This document shows positions 4,901 to 38,965 of a DNA stretch of 64,000 bases, one piece after another (position 1 is the stretch's first letter; each line of letters starts with the position of its first letter). The position numbers and the translations under genes were made by a program. Source of the DNA: Escherichia coli (lineage in GTDB: Bacteria > Pseudomonadota > Gammaproteobacteria > Enterobacterales > Enterobacteriaceae); NCBI RefSeq assembly GCF_030384885.1, contig NZ_CP128613.1. One strand, given 5' to 3'. The notes beneath the pieces are model-generated. The model was not told the origin of the DNA. It saw only the letters and a program-made list of their open reading frames with translations, and made no database searches.

Positions 4901-6245
4901 TCTGCACACGTTTCGAGGCATTGCCTTTGTTATCGTAGGCAACTGCTGAAATCGCATAATAATTGTCTTTGCCTGGACGGTAAGCCGGGAGCGTTACTTG
5001 CCACTGACTACCCTGACCGGTAATTTTGCCACCTTCAGCCAGTAATGACGGCGCTTCCCACTGCACATTTTTCAGTCCGTGAGTTGCTTTGCTGACCACA
5101 AGCCCCAGGGAAACCGTCTGACCGCCCTTGCCTTCAATACGCTCAGGCAGAGCAATACGGATCACTTCAGATTTGCGGTACTCAAGAACGATGTTGTTAT
5201 TACGCTCAACCAGGTCATAGCGGCTGCCTGCCAGCATTCGACGCTCGCGAATGCTGTCTGTATCGAGTTGTTTTTGCAGAGGTTCGCCAATTCGGTAGTT
5301 AACTTCCAGGCCAAAGCGAGTGTCATTCTCACCACTCTTGCCCTGCTTATGCCCGGCGCTCAGTGTCAGAAGAGGCACTGGTGTATAGGTTACCTCGGCA
5401 GAAATAGCATGCGGGTCTTTCTGGCGTTTATCTTTACCAAACAGCCCGACTTCATCGCCATAATACTGCTCATACATCAGGCTTGCGCCAAGCTGCGGCC
5501 AGGCAGGTAAATAGCCCTCAGCACGAATATCCCAGCCATTCGCCGGGCGTTCCTGATAATCCTCAACATCCGGTGATTTTTTCCAGCCAGAAGCCCGGAT
5601 ATAACCATTGGCGCTCAGTTTCAAATAATCACGCCAGTATTCCGCACCAACACCAATGCGGGTATGACTACGGGATAAATCATGATCGATAAAAGTATTC
5701 ACCCCCGCCATCCAGTCATTTCCTGAAAAATGACGCCAGCCAAAACCAATATTTGACTGAGTACGATCGTCGGTACGATGTATTGCCCCCTGAGTGAACA
5801 ACATATTTGTCGGCGTGTCATAAATCGGATAAAGCATTTCCAGCGAAGAGTCCTTCAGCGAGAAATTTTTATCGACATTCAGTTTGACGCGCGCAGTACC
5901 ATATTTCCCGAGCCACTCCTGTATTTCCTGGTTAGCTTTAGCTGTGGCCATTCCGGTAATAAAGTTACGTGTCGCATCGCTATCTGGCTGACTGCTTAAA
6001 AATGTCCCGGCATTTGCGGCAAACGATGCGACATTTTTCTCCACATTATTATCAGCAGCTACCGTGGTATTTTCCATGCTCAACCGTGGCTGAACCGCAT
6101 GCTGCGCGCGTGCTGCCATTACTGGGGTAAAGGTGACAGCGAGTGGGAAAAGAACCTGAACAGAGATATTTGCCCACGCCACGCAGCGGGCCAGAACTGA
6201 ATAACGAAATCGTGGTTGTTTATGACCTGTTTTATAACGTGACAT
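1992..6245 (-). CDS. fdeC: intimin/invasin-like adhesin with beta-barrel anchor and tandem Big domains
   Basis: 1417-aa ORF; N-terminal beta-domain then repeated Ig-like modules (TVTLTA.D..GNP.. repeats); matches recollection of FdeC/EaeH. Confidence 0.85.
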   Translation of the reverse strand: MSRYKTGHKQPRFRYSVLARCVAWANISVQVLFPLAVTFTPVMAARAQHAVQPRLSMENTTVAADNNVEKNVASFAANAGTFLSSQPDSDATRNFITGMATAKANQEIQEWLGKYGTARVKLNVDKNFSLKDSSLEMLYPIYDTPTNMLFTQGAIHRTDDRTQSNIGFGWRHFSGNDWMAGVNTFIDHDLSRSHTRIGVGAEYWRDYLKLSANGYIRASGWKKSPDVEDYQERPANGWDIRAEGYLPAWPQLGASLMYEQYYGDEVGLFGKDKRQKDPHAISAEVTYTPVPLLTLSAGHKQGKSGENDTRFGLEVNYRIGEPLQKQLDTDSIRERRMLAGSRYDLVERNNNIVLEYRKSEVIRIALPERIEGKGGQTVSLGLVVSKATHGLKNVQWEAPSLLAEGGKITGQGSQWQVTLPAYRPGKDNYYAISAVAYDNKGNASKRVQTEVVISGAGMSADRTALTLDGQSSIQMLANGNEQKPLVLSLRDAEGQPVTGMKDQIKTELTFKPAGNIVTRTLKATKSQAKPTLGEFTETEAGVYQSVFTTGTQSGEVTITVSVDDMSKTVTAELRATMMDVANSTLSANEPSGDVVADGQQAYTLTLTAVDSEGNPVTGEASRLRLVPQDTNGVTVGAISEIKPGVYSATVSSTRAGNVVVRAFSEQYQLGTLQQTLKFVAGPLDAAHSSITLNPDKPVVGGTVTAIWTAKDAYDNPVTSLTPEAPSLAGAAAVGSTASGWTNNGDGTWTAQITLGSTAGELEVMPKLNGQDAAANAAKVTVVADALSSGQSTVSVAADRVKAGESTTVTLVAKDAHGNAISGLSLSASLTGTASEGATISSWTEKGDGSYVATLTTGGKTGELRVMPLFNGQPAATEAAQLTVIAGEMSSANSTLVADNKTPTVKTTTELTFTVKDAYGNPVTGLKPDAPVFSGAASTGSERPSAGNWTEKGNGVYVSTLTLGSAAGQLSVMPRVNGQNAVAQPLVLNVAGDASRAVISDMAVKVNNQLANGQSANQVTLTVVDSYGNPLQGQEVTLTLPQGVTSKTGNTVTTNAAGKADIELIATVAGEHSITASVNNAQKTVTVKFNADASTGQANLQVDTAAQKVANGKDAFTLTATVEDKNGNPVPGTLVTFNLPRGVKPLTGDNVWVKANDEGKAELQVVSVTAGTYEITASAGNNQPSDAKSITFVADKTTATISSIEVIGNRAVADGKAKQTYKVTVTDANNNLLKDSEVTLTASPASLNLEPNGTATTNEQGQAIFTATTTVAAKYTLTAQVSQDNGQVSTKTAESSFVADDKNAVLAASSDVQSLVADGKSTAKLEVTLMSANNPVGGNMWVDIQTPEGVTEKDYQFLPSKNDHFVSGKITRTFSTSKPGVYTFTFNALTYGGYEMKPVTVTITAVDANTATGEEAMK

Positions 6246-6795
6246 TGAGATAATTTCCTGATGAACGAATTAACGAACATAGGCAAACACAAATAATGGT
6301 GTCTGCTTGTCAGAAAAGCCGGGGATTTCCCGGTTTCCTTTTCCGCAGAAAAGGAAATACCTTTATGTAAGAAAGTACACCGCCACCTAATATATCCAGT
6401 GTCTGTAGCCACTCATCAGGTGGGTGGGCGCGGGATTATATTTTTATTTATGGGTAAAAATTTAGCTTTTTGTGCAAGTCATTAAATAGATACCTAAGTT
6501 ATATTTCTTACTCTGCGGACAGTGAATAATTCATTATTCAGAGTGAATAATAATGACCTGCTTTTAATTTACCACGATTGGAAATACGTCGAAGTAGGTA
6601 TATACGCCAGGATAAACCGATATATTTTTTTTGGATATTCATTTTCCTTCATCGGACTGTAAATTGCGGGGATATCGAACTTGCACGACTCATCGCAACA
6701 CTCAAACAGATTTATGAATTTCGTTCATAACCCCTGACAAATCCTGCCGTCTAATCGAGCTCTTCCCTTTACGTTATGCTTCTCATGAACGATAA

Positions 6796-7386
<591 letters not shown>

Positions 7387-7578
7387 GCGATTATGCATCT
7401 ACCTATTTACGTCGGTCACTCAGTCAGAGTCTTGCCCATATTCAATGAGGTTCAACACCGCAGCCAATGAAAAGTAGGCCATGCGGGGATTAATAGCATT
7501 ACTCATTAACCAATCGCTCTTTTCATTTACGTGCTCTTTATGTAACGTATTGCTTTTATTGATCTTCCTAGAGTTTGC

Positions 7579-7935
7579 ATGAATAAGAATCTCATCCTCG
7601 CATTTGCATTATTTTCCTTACCTGTATTTGCAGAAGAAGATCTGGGGCCAGGCAAATATGTTTGTGACATTAGGATTTCCAGCCTGGATACCGCTACTCA
7701 AATTCTGTCAAAATCCGCAACAGTTCTCGATAATGGAAACAATTTCATCGTTCAAATGCCAAATGGAGATCAATTGTACTCTCCAGATCTGGAAAATGTT
7801 GATGATGGTATAAAACAAAAAGCAACAATAGGTGGAGTGACATTTATTCGTCGTCCAACTTTTAACGATCGCTTCATCGTGGAAGATGGAAATACAGGAT
7901 TCTTCTATAAGATGCGAAACTGCGAGAAGAAATAA
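7579..7935 (+). CDS. hypothetical secreted protein (signal peptide), low-GC islet
   Basis: 118-aa ORF, N-terminal hydrophobic signal-like segment MNKNLILAFALFSLPVFA; AT-rich composition. Confidence 0.45.
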   Translation: MNKNLILAFALFSLPVFAEEDLGPGKYVCDIRISSLDTATQILSKSATVLDNGNNFIVQMPNGDQLYSPDLENVDDGIKQKATIGGVTFIRRPTFNDRFIVEDGNTGFFYKMRNCEKK

Positions 7936-8223
7936 AGGAAGTTTGATAGCGATATCCTCCTGATTTTCAGGCTTTGTACCTGTTCAAGACTTACAACTAC
8001 AAGCCGCTACGTGTTAACGCCTCCCAAAATAACCACCGTTAACCGTAGCGGCCATAGATACTATTATTTTAGCCACATTACTGGTGATAATGATAATTGA
8101 TATTATGGCCGTATAGAAAATAAGTATTAATTATCAGAAAGTTTATTATGTAAACGCGTCCTAATGATTACGTTATTCCTCTTACCGATATTCGCCCAGA
8201 GCAACCATCAATTACACACATCA

Positions 8224-9150
8224 TTAACTTTCTATTTTTACTCTTTTCTCCACCATAAAATCAATAAAAGCACGAACTTTAGAGGGCATTCTCACCCGTG
8301 ATGAAACATAAATATAAAATCCAGGAAATGAAACAGCCCAATCCTCAAGAATCGGCTGTAACTTGCCCGCATTGATATGTTCAGCGATTGCAAAATCCAG
8401 ATGTTGAATGATACCCGTTCCATTCAGCGCCATTCGTATCATGCTTTCGTCATCATTAGAAATATACTTACCTGAAACCTCTATTTCGAACTCTTCATTA
8501 CCCCCCACAACATTAGAAAACTCCCATGCAGAGAGTGCACCGCTACTTTTATGCCGCAACCGAAGGCAATTATGGTTACTCAGTTCCTGAGGCGTTTCAG
8601 GAATACCGTGTTCTTTTAAATAATCTGGCGATGCCACAGTAACCAGTTTAATAAGCGGAGAAACAGGAACGGCAGTCATATGCTCATCCAGTCCTTGCTC
8701 AAGACGTATGCCCACATCACAGCCGTCCGCAATAATGTTAGATAAACCGTCATCCATAATGAGTTCTATCTTTGTTTTGGGGTAACGAGTAAGAAACTCG
8801 CCAATATGAGGCTCAACAAGCATCCGTGCTGCAACACGGGAGGAATTTATTCTCAACAGGCCTGTAGGTTCAAGTTGGGTATCACCAACATCTTTCAAAG
8901 CATCATCAATTTGCCCCAAAGCCGACACCAGCACTTCATACAGACGCTGTCCTTCCTCAGTAAGCGACATATTGCGGGTCGTACGGTATATCAGCTTGGT
9001 GTTAAGACGTTCCTCAAGAGATTTTAAATTCTGGGACAATGCGGCCCGCGTAATACCCATTTCAGAAGCGGCTCTGGAAAAACTGCCGGCACGAACAATC
9101 AGCGCAAACCAGGCAAGAGAAGGCAAAATTGAAGGCTCTATTTTCATCAT
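8224..9150 (-). CDS. LysR-family transcriptional regulator
   Basis: N-terminal HTH (FSRAASEMGITRAALSQNLKSLEERL) from Met at 9150/9147; ORF-track start at 9243 is probably too far upstream; divergent from hydrolase gene. Confidence 0.75.
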   Translation of the reverse strand: MMKIEPSILPSLAWFALIVRAGSFSRAASEMGITRAALSQNLKSLEERLNTKLIYRTTRNMSLTEEGQRLYEVLVSALGQIDDALKDVGDTQLEPTGLLRINSSRVAARMLVEPHIGEFLTRYPKTKIELIMDDGLSNIIADGCDVGIRLEQGLDEHMTAVPVSPLIKLVTVASPDYLKEHGIPETPQELSNHNCLRLRHKSSGALSAWEFSNVVGGNEEFEIEVSGKYISNDDESMIRMALNGTGIIQHLDFAIAEHINAGKLQPILEDWAVSFPGFYIYVSSRVRMPSKVRAFIDFMVEKRVKIES

Positions 9151-9306
9151 TGTAAACCTTAACTTAACACTGTGATAGATATTAGACCATTGATGATAAC
9201 CAATACAAGTCATACTATTACGCCGTTCTCGATATGAACACAAATGCCAGTTGCGGATAATAGAAATGATATTTAAATCTGTTTAGGCAAATCCCTGGAG
9301 CTTGAA

Positions 9307-10227
9307 ATGAAAACGGTTTCGATAAAACACACTTACTGGGATATAGCTGCTGATATCTATTTCCCTGACGATTTTAATAGTGAAAAAAAGTATCCTGCCA
9401 TTATCAGTGCCCATCCAATTGGAAGCTGCAAAGAACAGACATCGGGTAGTGTGTATGGTGCCGCCCTGGCAAAAGCTGGCTTTATCGTCATTGCTTTTGA
9501 TGCCAGTTTTCAGGGAAGCAGCGGTGGAGAACCGCGTTATCTGGAAGATCCAACAATGCGAGTAAAAGACTTCAGCATTGTCGTTGATTACCTTACCACC
9601 TTACCTTACGTTGATGCCGGGCGTATTGGTGTACTGGGTATTTGTGGTGGAGGTGGATATGCCATTAATGCCGCAATGACAGAACGTCGGATTAAAGCCA
9701 TTGGTACTGTCACGGGTGCAAACTACGGGCGTCTTATGCGTGAGGGATTTACAGCGTTTAATCCTATCGGAGCACTCGAAGCAATGGCGCAACAAAGAAC
9801 AGACGAAGCTAACGGCGCAAAACTTCGCGTAGATGATTTACTCCCCTCTTCTCCGGATGCAGCTCTTGAAGCGGGATTAACAGAAATAGACCTTTTTGAA
9901 GCAACAGAATATTATCGTTCGCCACGAGGCTGTGCGACTAATGGGGTAAATCGTTCGCTATTTTCACATCAGACTGTTGCCGTGGGCTGGGATGCTTTTC
10001 ATCTTGCAGAAGTCCTGTTAACTCAACCACTAATGGTTGTAGTGGGCGATAGAGTGGGCGCTTTTGGTGCCTATCGTGACGGCTGCGAAATTATTGGTCG
10101 TGCAGCCTCAAAACATAAAGAGTTGGTCGTGGTTGAAGGTTATTCACATTACGACCTGTATGATAAGCCAGAACCTGTGAAACAGGCGCTCGATAAATTA
10201 ATTCCTTTTTACAAAACACATTTGTAA
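9307..10227 (+). CDS. alpha/beta hydrolase (dienelactone hydrolase-like)
   Basis: 306-aa ORF with GxCGGG nucleophile-elbow-like motif and late His; RBS GGAG upstream. Confidence 0.7.
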   Translation: MKTVSIKHTYWDIAADIYFPDDFNSEKKYPAIISAHPIGSCKEQTSGSVYGAALAKAGFIVIAFDASFQGSSGGEPRYLEDPTMRVKDFSIVVDYLTTLPYVDAGRIGVLGICGGGGYAINAAMTERRIKAIGTVTGANYGRLMREGFTAFNPIGALEAMAQQRTDEANGAKLRVDDLLPSSPDAALEAGLTEIDLFEATEYYRSPRGCATNGVNRSLFSHQTVAVGWDAFHLAEVLLTQPLMVVVGDRVGAFGAYRDGCEIIGRAASKHKELVVVEGYSHYDLYDKPEPVKQALDKLIPFYKTHL

Positions 10228-12884: not shown

Positions 12885-12935
12885 TTCATAATTCGCCGGA
12901 TTAACGATATTTGTCTGATTAATAATCAGACCGGA

Positions 12936-12974
12936 TTAATGTTGGTGTATTGATTACACCAACATTAATTTTCC
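12936..12974 (+). terminator. rho-independent terminator after ykgMO
   Basis: Perfect 14-15 bp stem ATTAATGTTGGTGTA/TACACCAACATTAAT followed by TTTT. Confidence 0.6.
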
Positions 12975-22820: not shown

Positions 22821-22851
22821 GGAGAATGTGGTTGACTTAAAAACGAGGAAA

Positions 22852-22913
22852 CTTATTGATTTAAATGGTGCCGATAATAGGAGTCGAACCTACGACCTTC
22901 GCATTACGAATTA
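22852..22913. repeat. left 62-bp direct repeat (att copy; duplicates 3' part of tRNA-Thr plus 16 bp)
   Basis: Identical to 36105-36166 by direct comparison. Confidence 0.8.
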
Positions 22914-23282
22914 TAAGAATCCGTTTCTAATTCAAAGCATTACCACATCAACACTGCGCTCACACGTCCCACCACATCAAAACATGTAAAGCCTTGCAAG
23001 CCATTGTGAGGCCTTATGTGTCTCAGTTTTGTCCCACCTTGTATTACGACTTGCATAACCAATGAAGATAAACGTGACGACAAACGACGCAGCAGTCTTC
23101 TTTTCTTTCACACTTTCCCCACTCAGCATGCATACCTTCTACTATAACTGTAGTGAATGTCTGTTATGAGCGAGGAGCGGACTATCTTTCTGTGCTAAGC
23201 ACAGAAGTTTAAATTAATAAATAGAGATTAAGATGTTTATTGGTTACATTGATATTTATAATTTGATTGCCTTGAAATTCCT

Positions 23283-23322
23283 AAGCCGAATTCATGACGT
23301 CTTCATCACATGAATTCGGCTT
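23283..23322 (-). terminator. hairpin downstream of the 447-aa cargo gene (possible terminator)
   Basis: Perfect 14-bp stem AAGCCGAATTCATG/CATGAATTCGGCTT, 12-nt loop, about 30 nt past the stop codon; no clean U-run. Confidence 0.35.
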
Positions 23323-23351
23323 ATGCATAATACTAAGTTGGTTTTATTAAG

Positions 23352-34942: not shown

Positions 34943-36106
34943 ATGTCACTCTTCCGCAGAAGTGAAATATGGTACGCCAGTTTCACATTGCCGAACGGTA
35001 AAAGATTTAAACAGTCTCTTGGAACAAAGGACAAAAGGCAGGCGACAGAGCTCCATGACAAGCTAAAGGCTGAAGCATGGCGGGTCAGCAAACTTGGTGA
35101 AATACCTGATATGACGTTTGAGGAAGCGTGTGTCAGGTGGCTCGAAGAGAAAGCACATAAGAAATCACTGGACGATGACAAAAGCCGGATCGGATTCTGG
35201 CTTCAACATTTCGCAGGGATGCAACTAAGAGACATCACTGAATCAAAAATTTATTCAGCGATGCAGAAAATGACAAACCGGCGTCATGAGGAAAACTGGA
35301 AACTCAGGGCAGAAGCATGCAGAAAAAAAGGGAAACCTGTTCCAGAATACACGCCAAAACCAGCGTCCGTTGCAACGAAGGCTACGCATCTTTCATTTAT
35401 AAAGGCCCTGCTAAGAGCCGCAGAGCGTGAATGGAAAATGCTGGATAAGGCACCAATTATTAAAGTGCCTCAACCGAAGAATAAACGTATCCGCTGGCTG
35501 GAGCCTCATGAAGCACAAAGGCTGATTGATGAATGTCCGGAGCCATTAAAGTCTGTTGTTGAATTTGCACTGGCAACAGGCTTAAGACGCTCGAACATCA
35601 TCAACCTTGAATGGCAACAAATAGACATGCAGCGCCGGGTGGCATGGATAAACCCGGAAGAGAGTAAATCAAACCGCGCAATTGGCGTTGCGCTGAATGA
35701 TACTGCATGTCGCGTATTGAAAAAACAAATCGGGAATCATCACCGTTGGGTATTTGTATACAAGGAAAGCTGTACCAAACCAGACGGAACGAAAGCGCCA
35801 ACGGTCAGGAAGATGCGGTATGACGCAAACACAGCCTGGAAAGCGGCGCTGAGACGAGCAGGTATTGATGATTTCAGATTTCACGACTTGAGACACACCT
35901 GGGCAAGTTGGCTGGTTCAAGCCGGAGTCCCGTTGTCAGTGTTACAGGAAATGGGAGGCTGGGAGTCTATCGAAATGGTTCGTCGATATGCTCACCTCGC
36001 ACCTAATCACCTTACCGAACATGCACGGCAAATAGACTCGATCCTGAACCCATCGGTCCCAAATTTGTCCCAGTCAAAAAATAAGGAAGGTACTAATGAT
36101 GTGTAA
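34943..36106 (+). CDS. int: tyrosine integrase (P4/DLP12 IntD-like)
   Basis: 387-aa ORF with HDLRHT...YAHL catalytic tail, ending 15 bp before the tRNA 3' end. Confidence 0.9.
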
Positions 36107-36166
36107 CTTATTGATTTAAATGGTGCCGATAATAGGAGTCGAACCTACGACCTTCGCATTACGAAT
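36105..36166. repeat. right 62-bp direct repeat (att copy overlapping tRNA-Thr 3' end)
   Basis: Identical to 22852-22913. Confidence 0.8.
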
Positions 36167-36196
36167 GCGCTGCTCTACCAACTGAGCTATATCGGC
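36121..36196 (-). tRNA. thrW: tRNA-Thr (anticodon CGU)
   Basis: Reverse complement reads GCCGATATAGCTCAGTTGGTAGAGCAGCGCATTCGTAATGCGAAGGTCGTAGGTTCGACTCCTATTATCGGCACCA; cloverleaf-compatible, CCA end. Confidence 0.9.
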
Positions 36197-38678: not shown

Positions 38679-38965
38679 GATTCTCTGCCATTCAATTTTA
38701 GGGAAAATGATATCAAACGAACGTTTTAGCAGGACTGTCGCCGGTTGCCAACCATCTGCAAGCAAAGCATGGCGTTTTGTTGCGCGGGATCAGCAAGCGT
38801 AGCGGCAGTTGTTTACGCTTTTATTACAGATTTAATAAATTACCACATTTTAAGAATATCATTAATCTGTAATATATCTTTAACAATCTCAGGTTAAAAA
38901 CTTTCCTGTTTTCAACGGGGCTCTCCCGCTGAATATTCGCGCGTTAATTAAAATCAGGAATGAAA

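Follow-up and report, generated by a model that had tools for sequence, protein, structure and literature searches.

A stem-loop at the edge of an Escherichia coli islet as a probable relic of the conserved non-coding module at the ends of thrW-integrating islands

The stem-loop at positions 8003-8052 of the Escherichia coli window studied here (the window being the whole 64,000-nucleotide stretch of chromosome that was analysed) forms the final 50 bp of a small islet, and we consider it, with a probability of roughly 0.6, to be an orphaned piece of a mobile element and not a regulatory site that evolved at its present locus. The islet as a whole is very probably a decayed fragment from the tRNA-proximal end of an island that integrates at thrW, a view suggested by sequence relationships because both its 118-aa open reading frame and its last 87 bp have relatives at the ends of such islands. 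In those islands the hairpin belongs to a conserved non-coding module of about 400-490 nt that lies between the variable cargo and the att core. The window carries fdeC, ykg genes, the ecp operon, thrW and proAB, and its positions 6300-9400 are 100% identical to strain 2013C-4282. The features that matter for the argument are these:

6811..7371, + strand: truncated aldo/keto reductase gene that has lost its C-terminus; chromosomal, left of the islet
7373..8052, + strand: islet, 680 bp
7579..7935, + strand: ORF of 118 aa whose N-terminus resembles a signal peptide; belongs to the cargo of thrW islands
7966..8052, + strand: module fragment, 87 bp, made up of the flank TTGTACCTGTTCaAGacTTACAACTACA and the hairpin; from the conserved terminal non-coding module of thrW/leuX islands
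8003-8052: hairpin, with left arm GCCGCTACG-T-GTTAACG, loop CCTCCCAAAATAACCAC and right arm CGTTAAC-CGTAGCGGC
8003..8019: left arm, GCCGCTACG, bulged T8012, GTTAACG
8020..8036: loop, 17 nt, CCTCCCAAAATAACCAC, whose TCCC...CCAC ends are kept among relatives
8037..8052: right arm, CGTTAAC CGTAGCGGC; its last base is the right junction of the islet
8224..9150, - strand: LysR-family regulator gene, convergent with the islet ORF (placed from L001 8925-9851 minus an offset of 701)
36121..36196, - strand: thrW (tRNA-Thr CGU), 28 kb from the hairpin, with a different island on its flank

The islet and its terminal stem-loop

Located between fdeC and a gene of the lysR type, the islet is present with identical junctions in 315 genomes among the 5426 complete ones of E. 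coli, namely O157:H7, O55:H7 and a few others. BLAST comparison with the islet-free strains L002 and L003 puts the breakpoints between 7372 and 7373 and between 8052 and 8053, and shows that the islet stands in place of 2283 bp that hold, in those strains, the C-terminal remainder of the truncated aldo/keto reductase gene (AKR1), a second reductase gene (AKR2) and a LysR gene. On the left, homology of the aldo/keto reductase gene to the intact copy of the islet-free strains ends at 7372, and the remnant is annotated as a partial pseudogene in strain 2013C-4282. On the right, homology resumes at 8053, exactly at the base of the stem; the location of the hairpin at the islet boundary, proposed from the sequence in the preliminary description, thus holds to the nucleotide. 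The junction base itself is polymorphic: of the 315 genomes with the islet, 313 (including EDL933, L195 2178) have T at position 8052, which yields an outer G·T pair, and the window and one other genome have C. Intermediate alleles of the fdeC-lysR islet were not found among the complete E. coli genomes (n=5426).

The stem consists of 16 Watson-Crick pairs and one bulged T (8012), closed by a 17-nt loop. What had been described as a nested perfect palindrome is perfect in each of its two arm pairs (9 bp and 7 bp), whereas the stem taken whole is imperfect owing to the extra T8012 in the left arm. As RNA, the + strand folds with a minimum free energy of -24.7 kcal/mol (z = -5.9, as good in 0 of 200 shuffles) and the - strand with -28.9 kcal/mol (z = -3.9); in the folding set used for natural variants, the window hairpin gives -23.5 and -25.4 kcal/mol on the two strands. 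When the 64-kb window was scanned for stems of 14 or more Watson-Crick pairs that have no more than one bulge and close a loop of 3-25 nt, five hairpins emerged, whereas 30 first-order Markov randomisations gave 0.03 on average; the one at 8003-8052 is the longest. The hairpin is real and far beyond chance expectation. Four further hairpins of this class lie at 1925-1960, 12935-12970, 23282-23323 and 38823-38875, the first directly downstream of the fdeC stop and the second directly past the ykgO stop, within the annotated ykgL pseudogene; these four are probably terminators.

As an extragenic, GC-rich, imperfect palindrome between convergent E. coli genes, the hairpin resembles the dispersed repeats of the REP/BIME type. 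It differs from them in that its sequence is unrelated, it is confined to island ends and it is single: the window holds one match when up to 3 mismatches are allowed, and 341 genomes each hold it in one place. The motif is therefore neither common nor randomly distributed, and its relatives stand at a constant place relative to a tRNA gene. Rfam covariance models gave no relevant match at E up to 10, either for window positions 6000-10000 or for the native modules. The single copy, the Rfam result and the chance expectation of about 0.03 per 64 kb together refute a dispersed repeat or a chance palindrome, a reading to which we assign a negligible probability.

The parent module at island ends

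The 118-aa ORF has only 17 homologues and no Pfam domain. In L020/L021, loci reached through a protein that NCBI names as Klebsiella pneumoniae, its homologue lies about 1.2 kb from thrW, upstream of module and thrW and with the orientation that the ORF has in the window; another homologue, in Siccibacter (L017), lies about 50 nt from the thrW att core. A sensitive search for the hairpin across the 5426 complete E. coli genomes returned a second class of matches, of about 83% identity, in 26 E. coli records. Both of the records inspected adjoin thrW or a thrW att repeat, and the homology corresponds to window positions 7966-8052, ending at 8052. This 87-bp fragment is 72-84% identical to the module in L005, L012, L013 and L021 and is the sole piece of the module within the window.

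One donor-type island could be delimited completely, that of E. coli GF131, which spans 13.6 kb between 33-bp direct repeats of the thrW 3' end (L016 309-341 and 13885-13920). Its hairpin module is tRNA-proximal, with the hairpin about 95 nt from the thrW core; its distal end carries a gene for a 401-aa tyrosine integrase whose start codon faces the att core and whose transcription is directed away from att, and it also has genes similar to those for a phage head protein and for a replication initiator. Homologues of the hairpin thus sit inside thrW 3'-end repeats with a tyrosine integrase at the other end, as expected for the attP-arm side opposite the integrase in tRNA islands and phage satellites, although a hairpin is not a described component of such arms and this one behaves as a single-strand structure. 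Among the known systems that we compared, the relic of the non-integrase end of a tRNA-integrating island is the best fit for the window hairpin. The window copy lacks the att core and the core-proximal 95-nt arm, and thrW is 28 kb off; since it does not lie between element repeats near an att core, we regard it as a relic and not as a functional attP arm. The suggestion that the palindrome is a recombination scar also falls away, in that the hairpin was not made by a recombination event and was imported complete within the conserved end module of the donor island.

Copies of the module were delimited at three tRNA genes and on two plasmids:

L005 3676-4167: thrW, strain GF131
L196 3500-3968: leuX
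L197 3500-3734: glyU
L198 3500-3715: plasmid pTB402
L008 2400-2660: Klebsiella plasmid

Both thrW and leuX have the full module, glyU and plasmid pTB402 have nothing but domain 1, and the Klebsiella plasmid pKp5-1 (L008) has a shortened module with hairpin and att core. Homologues of the module occur in E. coli, Enterobacter, Citrobacter, Raoultella, Phytobacter, a Klebsiella plasmid, IMG/VR viral contigs and metagenome contigs. Where these are of the thrW type, a spacing of about 95-110 nt invariably separates the hairpin from the 3' end of thrW or from a copied att core. The hairpin segment of the leuX type occurs in 638 of 5426 E. coli genomes, with leuX about 95 nt away. The plasmid collection yielded the module copy on pKp5-1 and an Enterobacter homologue of the 118-aa ORF with no hairpin downstream. 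In the phage collection the module is absent, and a search there with the islet gave just a chance match of 27 nt; K-12 has no module beside thrW. The annotation under the listed matches to domain 1 or the module consists of nothing but an occasional hypothetical protein and the thrW gene contained in the query, and we found no description of the module in the literature on the thrW attP, the thrW PICI and the leuX, glyU and thrW integrases.

Domain 1, the distal ~205 nt of the module, is present in 1163 of the 5426 E. coli genomes, including copies beside leuX and glyU and on plasmids. It is closed by two long-range helices, P1 in three Watson-Crick versions (AAGCCC/GGGCTT, TTTAGCGC/GCGCTAA and CGTGC/GCACG) and P2 in at least five (TAGTGGTA/TACCACTA, TGGTGATA/TATCACCA, TGGTGGT/ACCACCA, GTGTTGGG/CCCAACAT and GTGATGGGA/TCCCATCAT), and its inner hairpins covary too. 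RNAalifold on 13 sequences of the domain gives -46.1 kcal/mol with 48 pairs, 10 of them compensatory, in the tRNA-sense direction, against -36.6 kcal/mol with 36 pairs, 6 of them compensatory, on the other strand. Single-sequence folding of the whole module is not significant (z = -0.5 and -0.8), and RNAalifold across all 24 divergent modules was impaired by misalignment. The hairpin may be one helix of a structured, ~400-490-nt non-coding element, absent from Rfam, that marks the tRNA-proximal end of an island superfamily, a generalisation that we offer as speculative and rather doubtful as it stands. By eye, likenesses to the iterons of the P4 origin (TGTTCACC) and to the lambda cosQ region were also seen, in both cases too weak to be used.

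The base of the stem is a boundary in more than one setting. Modules of the thrW type and of the leuX type cease to be homologous exactly at the outer base of the hairpin, at the same nucleotide where the islet of the window ends, and domain 1 likewise ends as a unit in its glyU and pTB402 copies. The plain reading is that selection retains folded units and that their flanks are exchangeable. From these alignments, the stem base is probably a recurrent recombination boundary, arising through illegitimate joining or template switching at the base of the hairpin.

A more specific possibility, that the insertion was mediated by the hairpin acting as a recombination site or as a mobile-element end (attC-like, or subterminal as in the IS200/IS605 type), could draw on this shared nucleotide and on the cassette-like anatomy of the islet: after its single ORF comes an imperfect hairpin, which has an extrahelical base and forms the exact end of the unit. 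An integron attC has the same layout, and its structure likewise matters on one strand. The outer ends of the hairpin, GCCGCTAC and GTAGCGGC, lack the RYYYAAC/GTTRRRY core sites, however, and the inner GTTAACG/CGTTAAC fit neither consensus. Neither an integron integrase nor a Y1 transposase nor a cassette array is annotated within 7 kb, and the relatives are single, beside tRNA att sites, at one fixed position per island and not in arrays. The event at the islet was, moreover, a replacement that lost 2.3 kb and not a clean insertion, and the left end of the islet has no hairpin or inverted repeat to partner the one on the right, searches for terminal inverted or direct repeats having given chance-level matches only. 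We rejected attC as a model and hold the wider class of recombination sites and element ends to be very improbable.

A metagenome contig offers an observation of its own: in L153 (OIEQ01000351.1), some 100 nt into the reverse strand, unrelated sequence has taken the place of the left arm of the hairpin and of everything upstream of it, a second case of a rearrangement breakpoint inside or at the hairpin.

Several further observations concern thrW loci in general. The thrW gene of the window adjoins a 13.25-kb island of its own, bounded by a 62-bp perfect direct repeat (22850-22911 and 36105-36166; 46 nt of the thrW 3' end plus 16 nt) and carrying a 387-aa integrase-like ORF (34943-36106, + strand) that abuts thrW; it is missing from the otherwise near-identical strain 2013C-4282 and belongs to another family than the donor of the hairpin. 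The thrW gene of GF131, as rebuilt by the module-bearing island (L016 309-345), reads ...GGCAC and then TCACAC, without an encoded CCA end, which is retained in the displaced repeat of GF131 and in the window thrW (36105-36125, GGCACCA); the module variants L062, L142 and L184 read GGCACCAAC, with the CCA kept. In several genomes (L004 4140-4260, L009, L010, L011 and L017 4375-4480) a partial thrW core stands after the module-bearing island and leads on to a second element, which has a P4-type primase gene in L004 and L017. Beyond the thrW core, L004, L009 and L010 share the sequence ...ATACCCCCAAAAGTACCCCC, of which L011 and L017 have looser variants, and these multi-element loci look like tandem arrays of different elements.

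Evidence for a folded strand and candidate functions

The pattern of substitution among natural variants points to a structure formed by one particular strand. Over 19 hairpin variants, 96.0% of pair cells are standard on the tRNA-sense strand versus 82.2% on the other. G·U pairs on the tRNA-sense strand account for 46 cells at 11 of the 16 pair positions, against 4 cells at 3 positions for the mirror C·A class, and two stem pairs show double compensatory changes. The variants share descent, and counted by eye the G·U excess corresponds to about 12-14 events versus 3, so that its significance is only moderate. When folded, all 18 natural variants are more stable on the tRNA-sense strand, by 3-11 kcal/mol, with the variant of the Klebsiella plasmid biased likewise, and native copies reach z of about -2.8 on that strand. 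Loop length ranges from 13 to 20 nt among relatives. The window copy is the exception: all 16 of its pairs are Watson-Crick and its two strands consequently fold equally well. The choice of strand was made from G·U counts and RNAalifold energies.

These comparisons make it rather likely that the native hairpin is a folded single strand of tRNA-sense polarity. The folded strand is probably RNA, for which read-through from the tRNA gene would be the simplest source, with single-stranded DNA as the alternative. We favour a folded strand over a double-stranded dyad because pairing is kept through G·U on one strand alone.

The same asymmetry bears on the idea, raised at the outset of the work, that the palindrome is a protein-binding site, taken here as a double-stranded dyad such as an arm-type, Xis or IHF-associated attP site or an operator. 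There is something to be said for it. In intact islands the hairpin and the att core are at most ~150 bp apart, a distance at which arm sites would be expected; next to the hairpin are an A-tract and an IHF-like site (AATCAATCACTTG fits the IHF consensus in L021), and the sequences of the arms and of the loop ends are conserved more than pairing requires. The flanks carry repeated CAACTAC/CAACTGT motifs, and on the integrase side of GF131 the arm has an inverted pair of CAACTGT as well. Substitutions that preserve pairing on one strand only (the 46 G·U against 4 C·A cells) would nevertheless be meaningless for recognition of double-stranded DNA. The Klebsiella plasmid copy, too, has a compensatory change from C-G to T-A at pair 5-53 of alignment A1 that alters both half-sites, the window has G-C at the inner pair 21-39 where relatives have A-T, and the same hairpin serves thrW and leuX islands despite their differing att arms. 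A binding dyad in the stem is accordingly improbable. The flanks are a separate matter: the motifs CAACTACAG / CAACTGTTG and the CTGTTC repeats beside the hairpin of intact islands are conserved in primary sequence, and these candidate sites could be integrase arm sites with a role at the level of DNA.

What a folded strand would do in its native setting can be put forward only conditionally. The hairpin would fold as a single strand, most likely in RNA read through from the tRNA gene, and would act as a barrier, either as a terminator-like insulator or as a hairpin that protects an RNA end, placed between the tRNA and att arm on one side and the remaining non-coding module and the island cargo on the other. 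This barrier function is suggested by sequence and position, and we hold it tentatively, at somewhat less than even odds. A barrier or end-protecting hairpin is proposed in preference to a classical terminator because the tRNA-sense strand continues after the stem with CUGUAGUUGU, in which there is no U-tract, and because a terminator consensus scan made no call at the native copy. A competing sRNA model, in which the hairpin terminates an RNA of the '+' strand, is a live rival: leuX-type copies have TTTTT right after the stem on the strand opposite to tRNA-sense, and on that same strand the module is closely preceded by a promoter-like site.

Two other candidates for the native region were rejected. 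Like the sib retroregulator of lambda, the hairpin is conserved, lies across the att core from int and is separated from int by integration, but int of GF131 is transcribed away from att, which places the hairpin upstream of int, and the favoured strand is antisense to int. The U7/A7 tract in the 95-nt arm was considered as a terminator of thrW and set aside because the stem in front of it is unconserved and amounts to 3-5 weak pairs.

At its present site the hairpin could still have been put to use. It lies 67 nt past the stop of the 118-aa ORF and 172 nt past the stop of the LysR gene on the - strand, and these genes converge on it from both sides, so that a working and possibly bidirectional terminator or attenuator for the ORF (+ strand) and the LysR gene (- strand) deserves consideration. 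A GC-rich stem of 16 bp that is very stable on both strands, and wholly Watson-Crick in the window copy, would suit such a role, as would the U-rich tail of the - strand and the T5 after the stem in leuX relatives. That tail, UUGUAGUUGUAAG / UUGUAGUUGU / UUGUAGUUG, is merely U-rich, however, with 5 U in 9 and no run, and on the + strand the stem is followed by CAUAGAUAC..., without a U-tract. The 17-nt loop exceeds the ~3-8 nt of intrinsic terminators, the stem has a bulged base, a U-tract is absent from the window and thrW-type copies alike, and the terminator scan made no call at the window hairpin either, all of which agrees with the preliminary verdict that this is not a classical terminator. 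Furthermore, the same LysR gene does without any hairpin downstream in islet-free strains, and the element was imported and did not evolve at its present site. We therefore view a local terminator as unlikely. The window hairpin lacks the tRNA, the att core and the 95-nt arm, and is for that reason better seen as a relic, at most an incidental barrier between two convergent genes; on balance it probably has no dedicated function where it now lies.

Significance for island biology

For the locus itself, the result clarifies more than it surprises: the hairpin and the ORF are thrW-island debris fixed in the O157:H7/O55:H7 lineage, and no local regulatory role is needed to explain them. The wider value lies in the parent module, since the hairpin leads to a conserved and unannotated module with covarying helices that is situated at the tRNA-proximal ends of islands, in one of every five E. 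coli genomes as well as in several further genera. If the module is a functional RNA or single-stranded DNA, it would help to mark where islands end, and the boundary that recurs at the stem base would give modular exchange guided by a hairpin a concrete example. As an RNA cotranscribed with the tRNA, or as a single-stranded DNA element, the module could couple read-through from the tRNA promoter to the expression or silencing of cargo, or could alternatively serve the replication or packaging of a satellite. A functional module of either kind would thereby provide a new handle on how islands insulate themselves from tRNA transcription or exploit it.
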